From Candidatus Heimdallarchaeum aukensis (lineage in GTDB: Archaea; Asgardarchaeota; Heimdallarchaeia; Heimdallarchaeales; Heimdallarchaeaceae): 64,000 nt of DNA. Position numbers and translations under genes: made by a program. The notes below the pieces were generated by a model. It was given only the letters and a program-made list of their open reading frames with translations, searched no databases and was not told the DNA's origin. The stretch lies in contig CP084166.1 in assembly GCA_021513695.1 (NCBI GenBank), positions 2,368,001-2,432,000 on the forward strand, read 5' to 3'. This document shows positions 2,747 through 40,945 of the stretch, in pieces. The stretch's first letter is position 1; each line of letters begins with the position of its first letter.

Positions 2747-5293
2747 GTGAAATGTCCCGATTGTAGTAAAACCTTAACGATTGAAGAAAAAAGTCACACA
2801 TTTACTTTTCGTTGTCAATTTTGTGGATACTACTCAAAAATTGTTGGTGCTAAAAATGTTGAAGAAGCTTATAAGAAGACTGTGGAGAGGGCTATAGCTC
2901 AAAACAATATAATCCAAATATCAAAAAAAGAATCAGAACAACTAGTTAAAAGATTAACTCTTCAAGAGAAAATTAATCTGATTAAAAAAGGGAATGGTGA
3001 TCCTTCTAATCTCCCAAATCCCTTAGTTAAATTGTTAAGACATCCTGACTTAGAACCAGTTTACTATTTATTCTTGGAGCAAAAGTCTCCAGCTTTAGCT
3101 AAAGATTCCCTTTTTCTTCCATCTGAATTAAGTTCCTTTCTTAAGAAAAAGGGTTTTGTTCAATTATATGAATTTCAAAAACAATCGTTCAAAAAGATAA
3201 CAGAAGGAAAAAATGTAGTTATTGTAGCCCCAACTGGAACAGGTAAAACCGAGGCTTTCCTTTTTGCTATATTAACAGAAATTTGGGAATCTCATCCTCA
3301 TCCTCTATTACGAAATGGTCCTTATGCAATCTTTATCTATCCAAATAAAGCTTTAGCTAGAGATCAACAAAAGAAGATAAGCGAATATAGTTCAAAATTG
3401 GGAATAACCTGTGAAATTTTTGATGGCGATACTTCACAATCCAAAAGAAAAAAGATTTTGGAAAATCCTCCTGATATTTTAATAACAAATCCTGATATGC
3501 TACACTATCATATGCGAAAACCTAGTTTTAGGAGTCTGCTTTATCCGGTAAAGTTTGTAGTTATAGATGAAGTTCATGTGGCCGTAGGAGCATTTGGAAC
3601 AAATCTTTATTTTATAATTAGGCGATTAAGTCGATTGACAAAAAATAAATTACAATTTATTGCTGTTTCTGCCACAATAGGTAATGCCGTTGAGTTTACT
3701 TCTAAATTATTTAACAGCCCTTCTATGGATATAGTAGAAGTAACAGATGCACGAAAAGCACCTACTCATCTTATGATTGTGTATCCATATGGAACAAGCC
3801 AGTATACACTTACAGGAGACATTACTCGATTACTTGCTTCATCTGGTAGAAAAATCTTAGTTTTCCAGAATAGTCATAAAAATGCAGAAATTATTAATCT
3901 CCTTCTCAGCCAGAGAATGAAAATTGACAGCGCAGTGCATAGAGCGGGTCTCACAAAGAAATATAGAGCACAGGTAGAAAAAAGATTTAGAGATAATGAA
4001 CTAGATGTGTTAGTTTCAACGCCTACTTTAGAATTAGGAATAGATATTGGCAGTGTAGATTCTGTTGTATCTTCAATTGTTGACTTTACAAGGTTTACTC
4101 AACGATTAGGTAGAGCAGGAAGAAAAGGACAAGAATCAATAGGTATTCTTATTCTTAGGGACAATGACCCGATCTCTACCTATTATGCTTTTTACCCTGA
4201 AGACTATTTTGAAGACATAAGAAAAGGATTTATTGAACCTAAAAATGAACTCATTGCCTACTACCAAATATTATCCGCTGTGATGGATAAACCTCTAAAA
4301 GAAAATGAATTTCAAGAGTTTAAACACATTATTTTGAATCTTGTAAATGATGGTTTAGTTAAATTAGCACCAAAAGGAGAATTTCAAATAGCTGATTATT
4401 CAAAGGTTAGAAAAGTTTTGTCAGTATTTAACTTAAGAGGAATCGGTGATACTATCGTAATTGAAGATATCAATGGCAAAGAACTAGGTAGTCGTTCAAT
4501 GCCAATGGCTGCAAGAGAGTTACATCCGGGGGCAATATATTTACTAGGCGGAAAATATTATCGCTCTCTGTCCTTTCAGTATGATCCGAGATTAGGTCGT
4601 GGAAGAGTTAAAGTTCAAAATATTCCGCCGCTTAATAAAAAAACTACTGCTTTACGTTTTGCAATGCCTGAGATTATTAAAATTCATGAATTAAAGAAAA
4701 TTACTGGAACAGAAGCAATTTACTGTGATCTACGAATAACAGAAAATGTAATTGGTTATTCACTTTCTGATATCTTTACTGATGAGAATGTTGAAAACAT
4801 CCCGTTAAAAGAACCTATTCAGTATTCTTTTGTAACTAAAGGATTTATGTTTGTGATGCCAAAACCTCAAAAAATCTTCAGAAATTACCCCGATAAGCAT
4901 GAAGATGAACTAGCCACTGGCACATTTCACGCAATTGAACATGTTTTAATCGAATCAAGCGAAATGATAACTGGTGGAGGAAGTAATGAAATAGGAGGTA
5001 TTTCAATGGGACATTCTGGAGCAATTTTTGTGTATGATGGAGCTAAAGGAGGTTCTGGTCTTTCAAAGCTACTTTTTGACCGATTAGATGAAGCGCTTGA
5101 TCGTTCATTAAATATCCTTAAGAAATGTACATGTAAAACAATGGACGGTTGTCCTAGATGTACCTATAGCTATCAATGTGGAAACAATAATTTCCCACTG
5201 AACAAGTATGGTGCTATTGAATCTCTGACACTTGTTAAAAAATCTAAATTAAAAATCATTGAAGATGTGAGCGGTTATAATCCTCTGATCTAG
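2747..5293 (+). CDS. DEAD/DEAH-box helicase of the COG1205/YprA(MrfA)-like family. It has an N-terminal zinc ribbon and a C-terminal DUF1998 Cys-cluster domain.
   Basis: Walker A APTGTGKTEAF, motif II VVIDEVHV, SAT (SATIGN), motif VI RLGRAGRKG. N-terminal CPDC...CQFCGY. C-terminal CTCKTMDGCPRCTYSYQCG. Confidence 0.75.
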   Translation: MKCPDCSKTLTIEEKSHTFTFRCQFCGYYSKIVGAKNVEEAYKKTVERAIAQNNIIQISKKESEQLVKRLTLQEKINLIKKGNGDPSNLPNPLVKLLRHPDLEPVYYLFLEQKSPALAKDSLFLPSELSSFLKKKGFVQLYEFQKQSFKKITEGKNVVIVAPTGTGKTEAFLFAILTEIWESHPHPLLRNGPYAIFIYPNKALARDQQKKISEYSSKLGITCEIFDGDTSQSKRKKILENPPDILITNPDMLHYHMRKPSFRSLLYPVKFVVIDEVHVAVGAFGTNLYFIIRRLSRLTKNKLQFIAVSATIGNAVEFTSKLFNSPSMDIVEVTDARKAPTHLMIVYPYGTSQYTLTGDITRLLASSGRKILVFQNSHKNAEIINLLLSQRMKIDSAVHRAGLTKKYRAQVEKRFRDNELDVLVSTPTLELGIDIGSVDSVVSSIVDFTRFTQRLGRAGRKGQESIGILILRDNDPISTYYAFYPEDYFEDIRKGFIEPKNELIAYYQILSAVMDKPLKENEFQEFKHIILNLVNDGLVKLAPKGEFQIADYSKVRKVLSVFNLRGIGDTIVIEDINGKELGSRSMPMAARELHPGAIYLLGGKYYRSLSFQYDPRLGRGRVKVQNIPPLNKKTTALRFAMPEIIKIHELKKITGTEAIYCDLRITENVIGYSLSDIFTDENVENIPLKEPIQYSFVTKGFMFVMPKPQKIFRNYPDKHEDELATGTFHAIEHVLIESSEMITGGGSNEIGGISMGHSGAIFVYDGAKGGSGLSKLLFDRLDEALDRSLNILKKCTCKTMDGCPRCTYSYQCGNNNFPLNKYGAIESLTLVKKSKLKIIEDVSGYNPLI

Positions 5294-9030: not shown

Positions 9031-10347
9031 TCATTCATCTAATTCTGTTAGTTTGACATATAGTCTCTTATAAAAATCTTGTACAGTTTGTAGAGATTTT
9101 AACTCAATATATTCATTTGCTCCATGAACATTTCCGCCAATTCCTCCAAATTCGATAGCAGGGATGTTCCTAGCGCTAAACCATCTTGAATCTGTAGCTC
9201 CTCCCATCTCAATTGTTTTTGTAGGTAATTCCAGTTCCTTAGCTACTTCAAGAGCTTTTTGAACTAATATTGAGGATTCAGACGTATTAACAGGTCCAAT
9301 ACTTCCTTCTGCTTTTATCTCTGCTTCAACATTGTGGTCTTTAAAGAAATCTTCAAAATATTTTTGAATTAAAGTATGATTATTACTCATAATTCTCAAG
9401 TCTAGTTGTACAAAGTAATGACCTTCTTTTTCAATAAAATAGTTGAAAGTAAGATTTATTCCATAATCACTATAATCTGATTCAATATCAACATTATCAA
9501 AGTCTCTTATAGAACGAAGAAATAAAGTTAAGTTTTTATCAATCTCAAAAGCTTCTCCTTCTTCATTTATCTTAACATAATCAATTGTAATTTCTGGTGG
9601 AATAACATTATTTTTTATGAAAACTCCGCTAATTGTTTGAACCAAGTCATCTTCTGAAAGTTTCTTAGATGCTGCAACAGCACAATGGATATCTAATTCC
9701 TTATTAAAGTATGCAGCATGCATAGTTCTATTTCCAGCTATTTCTGTTGTAAACTTCTCCGTATATAACTTCCCTTTTACTGTTTTCTTCTTTTTTGGAA
9801 TTTTTAAGTTTATAATGTACGGATTTCTACGTCTATTAATTATTTGTAAACCATTAGCATCACCATTTACTACATAATCTGGAACTAAATCATGTTTTTC
9901 TAATTGAGGAAGAAGTTCTCCTGCTCCAAAAGCTCCTCCTGATTCTTCGTCTAAATTAAAAGCAAAAATGATTGTGCCTTTCTCTTCTTTTGCAAAAAAT
10001 TCAGCCAGACTTAGCATTACAGCTACAGAACCCTTCATGTCTGCACTCCCTCGCCCATATCCTTTTTCGTCCCTTATTATAAAGGTAAATGGATCAGTTT
10101 CCCAATTTGGCCCCGGTGGTACAACATCACAGTGCCCTAAATATAACATCTTAGGGCTATCTCTTTTGATATAGGAAATAAGAGTCCAATAACCTTCTTT
10201 TACGTACATAACATTTTCGTATCCATATTCAGATAAGTAATTTCTTATAAAAATGAGTATGTCTTTACTAGGTTTGATTTTTTTTACAGGATTATTTATC
10301 GTATTGAATGAAACAAGTTTTTCAAGAATGGTTAAGTATGATTTCAT
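9031..10347 (-). CDS. M20 family metallopeptidase (ArgE/DapE/CPG2-like deacylase)
   Basis: GHCDVV, GRGSADMKG, EESGG and HGANEYIE metal-binding/catalytic motifs. Confidence 0.75.
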   Translation of the reverse strand: MKSYLTILEKLVSFNTINNPVKKIKPSKDILIFIRNYLSEYGYENVMYVKEGYWTLISYIKRDSPKMLYLGHCDVVPPGPNWETDPFTFIIRDEKGYGRGSADMKGSVAVMLSLAEFFAKEEKGTIIFAFNLDEESGGAFGAGELLPQLEKHDLVPDYVVNGDANGLQIINRRRNPYIINLKIPKKKKTVKGKLYTEKFTTEIAGNRTMHAAYFNKELDIHCAVAASKKLSEDDLVQTISGVFIKNNVIPPEITIDYVKINEEGEAFEIDKNLTLFLRSIRDFDNVDIESDYSDYGINLTFNYFIEKEGHYFVQLDLRIMSNNHTLIQKYFEDFFKDHNVEAEIKAEGSIGPVNTSESSILVQKALEVAKELELPTKTIEMGGATDSRWFSARNIPAIEFGGIGGNVHGANEYIELKSLQTVQDFYKRLYVKLTELDE

Positions 10348-32305: not shown

Positions 32306-33463
32306 TTAAATTAAATTAAACAATTTTTTTCTTTTACGGATAATAATAACCATAGTCATTAAAAACATAATAGCCGTTAAAGAGTAATTCAGTGAGTAAT
32401 CTAAAGGAAATGTGTTTAATATGTCAGTATTTGTATCAGTTGTATTTCCACTTGGTTCCTCTCCTTCTCCCAAAATTCTTAGTTCGTGAATAGCTAGTGC
32501 AGGCATGCTTTCGTTGTTATATGCTACATCGAAATAGTTGGGCCCTTCTAATGATTGATATTAAGCTAAATTTGTGAAGTATATACTTTCTCCCAAATTA
32601 GTTTGAAAATCTCCTCCGTTAATATCTTCTGATCTTAAAGGCTTTGAAAACTCTATTTGTCTCATGTTTTGGTTATAAATAAATGTGGCTCATCCATCAA
32701 TTGTTCCTCCGACATCAATGTCACTAATAGGTTCTCCTTTAGTTTGATCAAAAACCATATCTTCGTATGATTCTGGGGTCATTACAGCAAGATCTGTTCC
32801 TCTATCAACTTCCAACATATTTGCTGTTTGACCAAACATGAATATATTCGCATCTCCTTCATCATATTTCTCCTCATAGATCTCAAAATAGATATATGTT
32901 GTGTATCCATCAGTAACAAAACGAATTTCTCCATCAAAGCGATTATCCTCTTGGATATAGTTATTTTCCCAATCAACAAAATATATAGTAACATGGTATG
33001 TTACTGCTCTATCCCAAAAATCTTCATTTGCATAACCGTCATAAGTAATATCCACCGAAGAGAGATAAACACACTCATAGACTTGATCTGAAAGCAACCA
33101 ATTAACCTTTCCTCCTATTTCTGGAGTGTGGATAATATCTCCATTATCAGTACCAAGTGAGAGACGAATAAATTTGAATGTAGAACCATCCGCAATAGAC
33201 CGATTAGGTCCTCCAGGAGCAGTTGTGTCAATCCAAGCTACAATGAAAACACCAATTGAGTTGCCATAACCTAGATCAAAATCAAAGCCATTGATATCAT
33301 TAGACTGTAATTCTTTTTGAAATTCAAAATATGAACCGTCGTTAGTCATTTTCGTGAATGCATTAACATTATTTTGCCCTCCCCTATCTCCATCGTTAAA
33401 AGGTTCTACGAAAAAAGAATCAAAGCCATGGTCTTCGACTCTATTATCTGAAGCGTTCATCAA
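32306..33463 (-). pseudogene. Inactivated surface-anchored protein gene: one reading frame interrupted by two in-frame stop codons (TGA at about 32690-32692 and TAA at about 32561-32563, complement)
   Basis: The 257 aa ORF, a 42-codon coding-like inter-stop segment and the 66 aa ORF ending in a TM anchor + RKRKK are all in the same frame. No signal peptide at the 5' end. Confidence 0.5.
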
Positions 33464-33496
33464 CTTAATTTTTGTACAATATTCTTGTACGCCAAT

Positions 33497-33700
33497 CTTG
33501 CTCTCGGAAAGATCTGTCTAGGGGGGAGATCTAAACACTCATTAAGCCAGAGGAGAAGGTTGAGCACTCCTCCACCGTGGAAACTGGATGAATAAATCCT
33601 CTCACACGGGAAAGTTAAGTTGTATTTAACTTTTCTTTGATTTCTTTCTTTATGCGCATGTTTTTTTATCCTGACACACCGTGCCAGCTTAGAGAGTAAG
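33497..33700 (+). ncRNA. Candidate structured RNA of unknown identity (GC-enriched intergenic segment with a 9 bp terminal helix)
   Basis: CUUGCUCUC (5') pairs with GAGAGUAAG (3') including a G-U, which favours the plus strand. An internal helix UGUCUAGG/CCUGACA. AGAUCU-flanked hairpin. About 45% GC versus about 30% for flanks. No ORF on either strand. Confidence 0.2.
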
Positions 33701-33757
33701 TATTTTTCTTAACATTTATCTTTTTTTTTCACTCTCTACATTACTAATGTCTTTTCA

Positions 33758-34180
33758 CTATTTAAACACCAATTTTTTAATTTGACAAAAATGTACAAAA
33801 AAGTAATCCATGAATATTGCATCAATTGTTTCTCCTTGCTCTTCTCTTCCAAAGAACATTATCTCTGTTGCATAAACTTGTCCTTCTAGATTAGGAATAT
33901 AAACAAAACCATAAAGAAATGAGTTGTCATATGCAAAATTTACTTTTGCAGAAACAATTATGGGTGGATCGTGGGGTTCTATTGGAACCAAATTTATCTC
34001 CACAAGGGAACTATTATCCCATTCTTGAAAGATTCCATCTAATACAATGGTGTCATTATAAGGAGCAATTATTGAGGGATTATCTGTTGTTTCCCCAGCA
34101 TAAAGTAAATTGATTTTTATAATTAATCCAATTAGAAGGCAAGCGAAAAAAATTATTGAAAAAATTTTTCTTTGCTTCAT
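33758..34180 (-). CDS. Small secreted hypothetical protein
   Basis: N-terminal signal peptide MKQRKIFSIIFFACLLIGLIIKINLLYA. 140 aa. Confidence 0.45.
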   Translation of the reverse strand: MKQRKIFSIIFFACLLIGLIIKINLLYAGETTDNPSIIAPYNDTIVLDGIFQEWDNSSLVEINLVPIEPHDPPIIVSAKVNFAYDNSFLYGFVYIPNLEGQVYATEIMFFGREEQGETIDAIFMDYFFVHFCQIKKLVFK

Positions 34181-40183: not shown

Positions 40184-40945
40184 GGTAGTGTCTAGTTTTC
40201 TTCCGACAAAATATTTGTGGGGACTCTAATAGTAAGATATGAAAACACAAAAACTATCTACTCTTTTTAAGAGATGCAGAGTCCCCAAAAAAATAATAAT
40301 AAAAGCTATTTATGAATATATTGGTTCAAAGAATGGTTTGAGGACAGTAGCATGGAAGAATGGTTTAACGCATCAAACATTATGGTATTGGGTAAAGAAG
40401 TTCAGGCTCTTTAGGGAAAGTTTACATAGAGTTGTAGCAGAGAGAGGGGGAATACCAGAGATTATAGTAGTAGATGAAACAGAGATTAGGACCTCTCAAG
40501 GCTCAATATATCTGTGGTTCGCGTTAGATCCTTACAACAAGACTTTACTGGGTTTTAGTATTACTAAAGGACGGAGTAATCTTGAATGTTTACTAACTTT
40601 CCGTTATTGGTTCAAATGTTGGGGTTTTAAGCCCCGTATTGTCGTTACAGATGCAGGAGTATGGTATCCTGTCTTACTTCGTCTCGGTATCAAAATCTCT
40701 GTTATCAAAGGTGGTTTACGCTCCTATATTGAACGTTTTAATGCTACTCTTAAGAGTTATCGTTGGTTTCATTCTATTCTCCACTGCACTTGTCCTATCC
40801 GTGCCGTCTATGGCTCTACTCATCTTTCTGGTTTCCTTACTCTCTTTATGCTCCATTATAATTTCGTTCGTCCTCATCAGAGCTTGGGACATCCTCCCCT
40901 TAGTTCCTTTTTACCTAGGAGGTGGTATAAAAACTAGACACTACC
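40184..40945 (+). mobile_element. Intact ~762 bp single-ORF insertion sequence (IS6/IS240-like DDE transposase) with 16 bp terminal inverted repeats and a 9 bp target-site duplication
   Basis: IR-L GGTAGTGTCTAGTTTT (~40184-40199). IR-R AAAACTAGACACTACC (~40930-40945). Flanking direct repeat CTTGGAGGA at ~40175-40183 and ~40946-40954. Internal GC higher than flanks. Confidence 0.8.
40239..40937 (+). CDS. DDE transposase (IS6/IS240-like, rve-type catalytic core)
   Basis: VVDETEI (D), VVTDAGVWY (D), SYIERFNATLK (E). C-terminal YNFVRPHQSLG integrase-core signature. Spacing resembles IS26 Tnp. Confidence 0.75.
   Translation: MKTQKLSTLFKRCRVPKKIIIKAIYEYIGSKNGLRTVAWKNGLTHQTLWYWVKKFRLFRESLHRVVAERGGIPEIIVVDETEIRTSQGSIYLWFALDPYNKTLLGFSITKGRSNLECLLTFRYWFKCWGFKPRIVVTDAGVWYPVLLRLGIKISVIKGGLRSYIERFNATLKSYRWFHSILHCTCPIRAVYGSTHLSGFLTLFMLHYNFVRPHQSLGHPPLSSFLPRRWYKN

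Follow-up and report, generated by a model that had tools for sequence, protein, structure and literature searches.

What is the GC-rich segment at positions 33497-33700 of the window (the whole 64-kb stretch of DNA analysed here)? A reading made from the sequence alone had seen in it a candidate structured non-coding RNA, encoded on the plus strand between two minus-strand genes. The 294-bp gap (33464-33757) between the minus-strand ORFs 32690-33463 and 33758-34180 is indeed present, and the GC enrichment is real, amounting to 42.6% over the 204 nt instead of the ~45% first quoted, against 32.2% for the window. Such a GC content or a higher one occurs in 0.7% of 204-nt windows and in none of the 313 non-overlapping ones. 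The 9-bp helix CUUGCUCUC/GAGAGUAAG that was thought to close the molecule, with its G-U pair valid on the plus strand only, was found as described, and so were a nested helix (7 bp and one bulged U) and an AGAUCU hairpin. By a rough estimate, about two 9-bp helices with G-U pairs allowed would arise by chance in an AT-rich sequence of 294 nt. When compared with shuffled sequence, the 204 nt do not fold exceptionally well, with z-scores of -1.73 (plus strand) and -2.36 (minus strand).

The statement that no ORF here exceeds 25 codons was wrong. ORFs of 35-36 codons with GTG or TTG starts occur on both strands, and the minus strand of the gap region contains an 82-codon stop-free frame. A hidden protein gene in this frame was considered and rejected, since A-run length differences break the frame in other copies of the sequence and neither a Pfam match nor a protein homologue was found. 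Known RNA families did not account for the segment either. A search of the whole window against Rfam gave no match at the gathering score, and over 33300-33900 no RNase P or SRP covariance model matched even at E<=10. The sole Rfam matches at this relaxed threshold, Pistol (19.1 bits, gathering 34.5) and snoR120 (20.2 bits, gathering 55), are noise, and ARAGORN found no tRNA or tmRNA.

We consider it probable, if by no means certain, that the segment is the inside of a 351-bp mini-derivative of an IS200/IS605 element (tnpB-only, IS1341-type), the GC-rich half of which is an omega-RNA scaffold on the minus strand. The two flanking ORFs share one reading frame. One distant homologue of the downstream ORF led to L004, a contig of a Guaymas Basin MAG that is syntenic with the window and ~90% identical to it in the neighbouring genes and flanks. 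L004 carries a single, uninterrupted ORF (...EEQGETIDSIFM/NASDNRVEDH..., a slash marking the junction), while the same residues are 351 bp apart in the window. The read-through in L004 also gives ...GETIDSIFM/NASDN..., and the 351 bp are absent exactly at TTTAT/GAACGC. Removing precisely the element from the window leaves a 386-codon open frame. The segment is therefore not truly intergenic, because its neighbours are the halves of one interrupted gene, and the limits 33497-33700 cut across the real unit, 33459-33809, taking in the middle segment and most of the scaffold (Table 1). The boundaries of this unit may equally be placed at 33458-33808, since a G follows both junctions.

The insertion has altered both halves of the host gene. 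The last 16 codons and the stop of the upstream half (33758-33808) are element sequence, which adds the tail DYFFVHFCQIKKLVFK, and the ATG of the downstream half (33458-33460) is chimeric, with AT from the end of the element and G from the host. The TTTAAATA box in the element faces the downstream gene half and could drive its expression.

Table 1. Coordinates of the split host gene, the mini-element and its parts in the window.
Feature	Position	Strand	Basis
N-terminal half of split host gene, signal-peptide protein	33758-34180	-	L004 comparison
C-terminal half of split host gene	32690-33460	-	L004 comparison
Whole protein-less mini-element, 351 bp	33459-33809	-	absent from L004 site; 5 further copies
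TAM TTCAT, host DNA 5' of left end	33810-33814	-	TCAT at 8/8 sites
Left end: GGATTAC-TTTTTTGTACA, TTTAAATA box, tnpB start remnant	33705-33809	-	homology to full-length left end
TATA-like TTTAAATA box	33759-33766	-	within left end
Middle segment, 92 bp, A-rich, most variable part	33613-33704	-	without full-length counterpart
Conserved GC-rich half (43.9%), homologue of tnpB 3' end and right end, predicted omega-RNA scaffold	33459-33612	-	nhmmer, covariance model
Helix 1	33575-33609	-	predicted scaffold fold
Helix 2	33550-33573	-	predicted scaffold fold
Central domain	33496-33551	-	predicted scaffold fold
Right-end hairpin, subterminal, GTACAA-GAATA-TTGTAC	33474-33490	-	predicted in every variant as single-stranded DNA
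TEM TTGAT, right boundary	33459-33463	-	invariant in all mini and full-length copies
Predicted guide portion GAACGCUUCAGAUAAUAGAG, host DNA 3' of right end	33439-33458	-	position by TnpB omega-RNA analogy (PMC10055086)

The element is not confined to this locus. A search of the genome collection with a 21-mer from the GC-rich core identified five more copies in the chromosome of Ca. Heimdallarchaeum endolithica PR6 (CP084167.1), with 95.6-96.9% identity over 347-360 bp, at unrelated loci and none of them at the window's own locus (the nhmmer score of the 351-bp element is 419 bits). Contigs identical to the window region are present in the Logan assemblies SRR15988954 and SRR15988958. The 21-mer scan of the collection returned mini copies only and no full-length element, and blastn and nhmmer found no further copies within the 64-kb window. 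The segment is thus part of a multi-copy mobile element and not, as had been suggested, a lineage-specific sRNA gene or a degraded RNA gene. The mini copies have lengths of 350-353 bp, and in each case TCAT(G) comes before the element, AAGTTGAT(G) ends it and A follows; the G(A)(A) after both junctions makes the boundary ambiguous by 1-3 nt. Removal of other copies restores ORFs of 240, 1040 and 100 codons, in each case on the element's own strand.

The restored ORFs, the intact host halves and the sense orientation of four or five in-gene insertions are features that an intron-like element would share, removed by the archaeal splicing endonuclease (bulge-helix-bulge) or by self-splicing and leaving a host gene that still works. 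We regard this as extremely unlikely. The junctions pair symmetrically in a helix with a G-G mismatch and not as two 3-nt bulges spaced by 4 bp, and neither group I nor group II intron models of Rfam gave a match. Two of the mini copies are intergenic, and one full-length copy (described below) lies antisense in a LOG-like gene fragment. The precise and scar-free boundaries are accounted for by a TnpB ancestry.

The target sites point to a particular class of transposon. TCAT is found directly 5' of the element at all eight independent sites, mini and full-length copies taken together, and GA follows the right end at seven of them, a target preference (TCATGA) too long to be accounted for by a 4-5-nt TAM. 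No unambiguous target duplication was seen at the eight sites, and the empty site in L004 is free of scars. The TEM TTGAT and the TAM TTCAT differ at position 3, and TAM/TEM pairs differing at one or two positions belong to the paradigm of IS200/IS605 elements (PMC10055086). Insertion 3' of a TAM, together with a TEM and the lack of a duplication, is the TAM/TEM arrangement of this family. [quoted passage not shown] An inverted 10-mer common to LE and RE is unusual for the IS200/IS605 family and, like the long target preference, counts against the proposal.

The outermost part of the left end varies. Element positions 2-6 (window 33804-33808; L005 3977-3981; L010 1758-1762; L011 2867-2871) differ between lineages, the variants being GATTA, AAGAG, AATAA and AATTA, but no variation is seen in the 12 bases that come next. 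Pairing with the TAM is, in IS200/IS605 elements, the task of a short DNA 'guide' in the left end.

The parent of the mini-element was found with a protein search. A host ORF that reads into either element end gains extra peptides, and these were concatenated for the search. In the single match, P0002, a fragment of a LOG-like gene runs on into the right end of the element, translated antisense. On the element's top strand, its contig (L010) has the left end TCAT/GAATAACTTTTTTGTACA..., two ORFs that jointly form a TnpB and the end ...AAGTTGAT, and 159 nt of it align to positions 196-351 of the mini-element (nhmmer 126 bits, E 1e-39). The complete element of 1478 bp is present in Heimdallarchaeaceae MAGs (L011, L012 and L014, members of the same cluster), and a second, diverged full-length copy of 1483 bp occupies another locus (L013; 114 bits with nhmmer for the right half). 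Both L011 and L013 have the LE and RE of the mini-element around a tnpB gene, with the junctions TTTTTTCAT/GAATTAC...GTTGAT/TATTCC in L011, where there is no duplication, and GTCAT/GAATAAC...GTTGAT/GAATGC in L013. The TnpB of the full-length relatives matches Pfam Cas12f1-like_TNB (73.9 bits) and OrfB_IS605 (23.9 bits), NCBIfam guided_TnpB (139.7 bits, cutoff 100) and also solved TnpB/Cas12f structures.

The correspondence between mini and full-length elements is closest in the right half, in which positions 196-351 of the former and 1320-1478 of the latter have 82-84% identity. In coordinates, window 33459-33612 (minus strand) aligns to L011 4187-4343 and L013 1867-2027, from the 3' end of tnpB through the TEM. 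The left end (mini 3-105) aligns to positions 3-103 of the 1478-bp element with ~63% identity, the LE 16-mer being best preserved together with the TATA-like box, and ATGTAG near 33738 is a remnant of the tnpB start region. Between the two, the middle segment gave no significant match to the full-length elements. It contains a CTGGCAC-GGT-GTGTCAG hairpin and the arm CUUACUCUC noticed in the sequence-only reading, and 7 of the 10 columns that are variable among the five H. endolithica copies fall in it. Taken together, the identity of the mini-element as a derivative of a TnpB element is well supported.

These relatives bear on a different origin, in which the element would be a TIR-type MITE unrelated to TnpB, moved by a DDE transposase with duplication of AT or ATG in a palindromic TTCATGAA target. 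The perfect inverted 10-mer near each end, the near-palindromic target and the ATGA(A) at both junctions of most copies agree with such an origin, but it is highly unlikely in view of the full-length elements, which have the same ends and hold tnpB only, without a DDE gene. The L011 junctions (TTCAT/G ... TTGAT/TATTCC) have no duplication, the inverted 10-mer lies inside the tips of the element, and the tips themselves do not match each other. A nearby IS481-like transposase has ends unrelated to those of the mini-element. An IS110-type bridge-RNA element was also considered and rejected, the interior having no match of at least 7 nt to the target or to the joined ends.

Transposase-like genes of other kinds do occur in these regions. 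Window 40239-40937 (plus strand) holds a 232-aa rve/DDE integrase-like ORF with weak Pfam matches, and the IS481-like transposase is encoded at L005 5805-6743 (plus strand; rve 64 bits), with 16-bp inverted repeats AATAGAAGTGGGTTAC and a flanking direct repeat CTCACTTATTTCTCTG. The ends of both are unlike those of the mini-element. The 64-kb window and the H. endolithica loci examined yielded neither tnpB nor tnpA, and no tnpA was seen in the full-length elements of L011 and L013. In the search for the parent element, DNA scans of metagenome, viral, plasmid and phage collections gave no match, and neither did a scan of viral contigs with the TnpB protein.

Both full-length tnpB copies are frameshifted. 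In L013 the frameshift (~700-745) lies in an A-run near the N-terminus, and in the copy shared by L010, L011, L012 and L014 it lies between the RuvC-I and RuvC-II regions (L010 ~857-880). The frameshifts could mark pseudogenes, homopolymer assembly errors or programmed frameshifts. The L011 element is antisense to a 59-codon LOG-like (SLOG cluster 4) gene fragment (~2830-2865 and 4344-4481). Its removal gives ...CGGKDGI/MKK-stop and does not restore the host gene, and further rearrangement beside its left end is therefore likely; L011 is also the only site with a right flank other than GA.

We then come to the GC-rich half itself. A covariance model (R1) with a four-domain structure was derived from the mini copies and gave 194.8 bits for the window, 148.8 bits for L011 and 130.2 bits for L013. 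The fold test comprised four distinct sequences from two lineages in an alignment fitted to the model. In this alignment 98.2% of the cells form standard pairs, and four pairs (8 cells), all in helix 1, change on both sides among these four sequences of two lineages. The helix goes from CCGUG/CACGG to CCACG/CGUGG, and its tip from GGAU/AUCC to AGAAAA/UUUUCU. The covariation score for the four sequences in the model-fitted alignment is 0.163 against 0.099 for shuffles, a value reached by 1 of 500. In slid controls 45-61% of the cells pair and no compensatory change is seen. Helices 2 and 5 have one unpaired cell each. The fold z-scores of the conserved half (-1.3 to -1.7) are unexceptional.

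The conserved fold favours the minus strand. When the sequences are aligned by hand, pairs form in 169 of 172 cells for this strand and in 157 of 172 for the plus strand, a difference that is due to three conserved G-U pairs and to G-C to G-U changes, all valid on the minus strand only. In the full-length elements the homologue of the conserved half is also located on the sense strand of tnpB. The 157 scaffold/RE columns are identical in all five H. endolithica copies, whereas 10 of the other 196 columns vary (P ~0.003). The stem of the RE hairpin is invariant, with the loops GAATA, AAATA, CCATT and AAATT. In elements of the IS200/IS605 family subterminal hairpins are expected at both ends, but the left end here forms weak A-T stems only, with a folding energy no better than that of shuffles and no clear LE hairpin. 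The omega-RNA models of Rfam gave no match in the window (gathering score), in 33300-33900 (E<=10), in L010 or in L013; these models cover a small subset of omega-RNAs only (PMC10055086).

An sRNA of ~200 nt on the plus strand, lineage-specific and perhaps element-borne, would be closed by CUUGCUCUC/GAGAGUAAG; its transcription would start from a promoter in the right end and stop at the T9 run (33721-33729). The G-U pair of the closing helix fits the plus strand only, T-runs lie downstream on that strand, and one helix-2 change (an A-C mismatch in the L010/L011-type copy) would pair on the plus strand only. We nevertheless find such an RNA very unlikely. The partner of its 5' arm lies in the middle segment, which the full-length relatives lack, and the closing helix, pairing scaffold with middle segment, is for this reason outside the conserved fold. 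The three conserved G-U pairs run against it, as do the changes from G-C to G-U, the z of the plus strand is only -1.73, and Rfam gave no match. What remains of the original proposal is that a conserved, structured non-coding RNA scaffold is probably encoded here, while most of the specifics (strand, closing helix, family) fail.

The main rival to the omega-RNA proposal accepts the same mini-transposon and takes the scaffold as inert, the leftover of a decaying deletion derivative from which no guide RNA is made or used. The conservation of the right half would then reflect no more than the young age of the copies and the requirement of the transposase for this end in cis. This is possible without being probable. 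The 96-97% identity between copies implies a recent spread, the two full-length tnpB genes known each contain a frameshift, none of the mini copies has a tnpB nearby, the fold z-scores are weak, and the covariation derives from two lineages only. Against this, the invariant block spans all 157 nt while the rest of the element varies, and it far exceeds the roughly 40-50 nt (hairpin and TEM) that a Y1 transposase needs. The TATA-like box is retained, and so is a minus strand free of T-runs downstream of it: past the box no T-run longer than 3 is found inside the element, the first T6 run being at 33409-33417. The compensatory changes in helix 1 between the MITE and full-length lineages also speak against an inert leftover.

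If the scaffold is an omega-RNA scaffold, as we propose, the history and working of the locus may be pictured as follows. The mini-element would have inserted 3' of TTCAT in the gene of a secreted protein, splitting it into the two flanking ORFs. The retained tnpB promoter with its TTTAAATA box would drive minus-strand transcription through the scaffold and past the right end, and the transcript would end ~16-20 nt into host DNA (33439-33458), so consisting of scaffold and guide. TnpB supplied by a full-length element elsewhere in the genome could load the scaffold RNA in trans and cut TTCAT-flanked empty copies of the site, the repair of which would restore the element. Excision and insertion as single-stranded DNA would be carried out by a Y1 TnpA, likewise in trans, by way of the TAM TCAT(G), the TEM TTGAT and the RE hairpin. 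We infer transcription from the retained promoter, guide read-through and the use of TnpB in trans by analogy with characterised systems, in which protein-less PATE-like IS200/IS605 derivatives keep omega-RNAs for TnpB in trans (PMC10055086). By the same analogy, 33439-33458 may serve as the guide portion read through from the element.

It is tempting to go one step further and to speculate that the Heimdallarchaeum mini-elements are kept by selection as stand-alone guide-RNA genes, each copy guiding TnpB to its own empty site. We consider this unlikely. If true, an element without genes would 'home' by RNA guidance in an archaeal group, the one that is closest to the eukaryotes, and the same machinery may also reshape host genes, as in the new start codon and the 567-bp gap in L004.

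This gap is a further difference between the two host alleles. An in-frame segment of 567 bp, 32860-33426 on the minus strand (189 codons, GFDSFF...EEKYD), is missing from L004 (at ~10226). In the window it is bordered by GACCAT/G on the left and ATGAT/G on the right, both TAM-/TEM-like, and the joint in L004, GATCAT/GAAGG, perfectly matches the target that the element prefers and is located only 31 nt away from the insertion site. The absence could be due to chance microhomology (ATG) or be a by-product of the transposition or nuclease machinery. The L004 orthologue (~9790-9830) has no ATG start and lacks part of the signal peptide context (IRHRKIF vs MKQRKIF), which together with the 567-bp gap suggests that the host gene is decaying in the L004 lineage as well. 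At the empty site itself (L004 ~10188-10195), TTTAT is found in place of the window's TAM TTCAT (33810-33814), a synonymous change in a Phe codon. A single TAM change abolishes cleavage in characterised TnpB systems (PMC10055086), and the TTTAT empty allele might for this reason be immune to guide-directed cutting.

The analysis corrects an annotation trap, in that what looks like two 'hypothetical' ORFs with a 'structured intergenic RNA' between them is a single gene into which a mobile element has inserted. The element family is now defined by a TAM (TCAT/TTCAT), a TEM (TTGAT), its boundaries and a candidate omega-RNA fold. Provided that the RNA is functional, the family would offer a compact Asgard TnpB/omega-RNA pair and a natural case of guide RNAs on protein-less elements. 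We see in it a data point on the persistence of TnpB systems and not a new principle, as mini IS200/IS605 derivatives with omega-RNAs are already known in bacteria. The TnpB-derived mini-element family of Heimdallarchaeum is previously undescribed. The literature searched contains no description of such mini-elements in Asgard archaea and no paper linking Asgard archaea with MITEs, and the genome paper for both Heimdallarchaeum species reports abundant repeats and leaves such mini-elements unmentioned.

Among known systems, the PATE-like ISGst elements of Geobacillus stearothermophilus (Meers et al. 2023, PMC10055086) are alike in having no protein gene, ends shared with tnpB elements, insertion directly 3' of a 4-5-nt TAM without duplication, a right-end TEM that differs from the TAM at one position, and a scaffold that adjoins the right end. 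The last feature, combined with the lack of a protein gene, implies a guide taken from flanking DNA and a TnpB acting in trans. The mini-element, known here from sequence alone, differs from ISGst in its Heimdall-group archaeal host, the lack of sequence similarity, the inverted 10-mer common to both ends, the longer target preference (TCATGA at 7/8 sites) and the 92-bp middle segment.

The omega-RNA (reRNA) of ISDra2 and the sotRNAs of Halobacterium IS1341-type elements (cited in PMC10055086) likewise lie on the tnpB sense strand, overlap the end of the tnpB ORF, reach as far as the right-end boundary and have a multi-helix scaffold of ~150 nt. Unlike these, the mini-element has lost the tnpB ORF, and its scaffold is not recognised by the Rfam models of these RNAs.

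The SM-type MITEs of Sulfolobus are derived from IS elements and are of the TIR/DDE type, with target duplications. The mini-element resembles these MITEs (also cited in PMC13343696) as a short, multi-copy, non-coding IS deletion derivative that disrupts genes, and is set apart from them by its derivation from a TnpB element and by its scar-free insertion of the TAM/TEM type.
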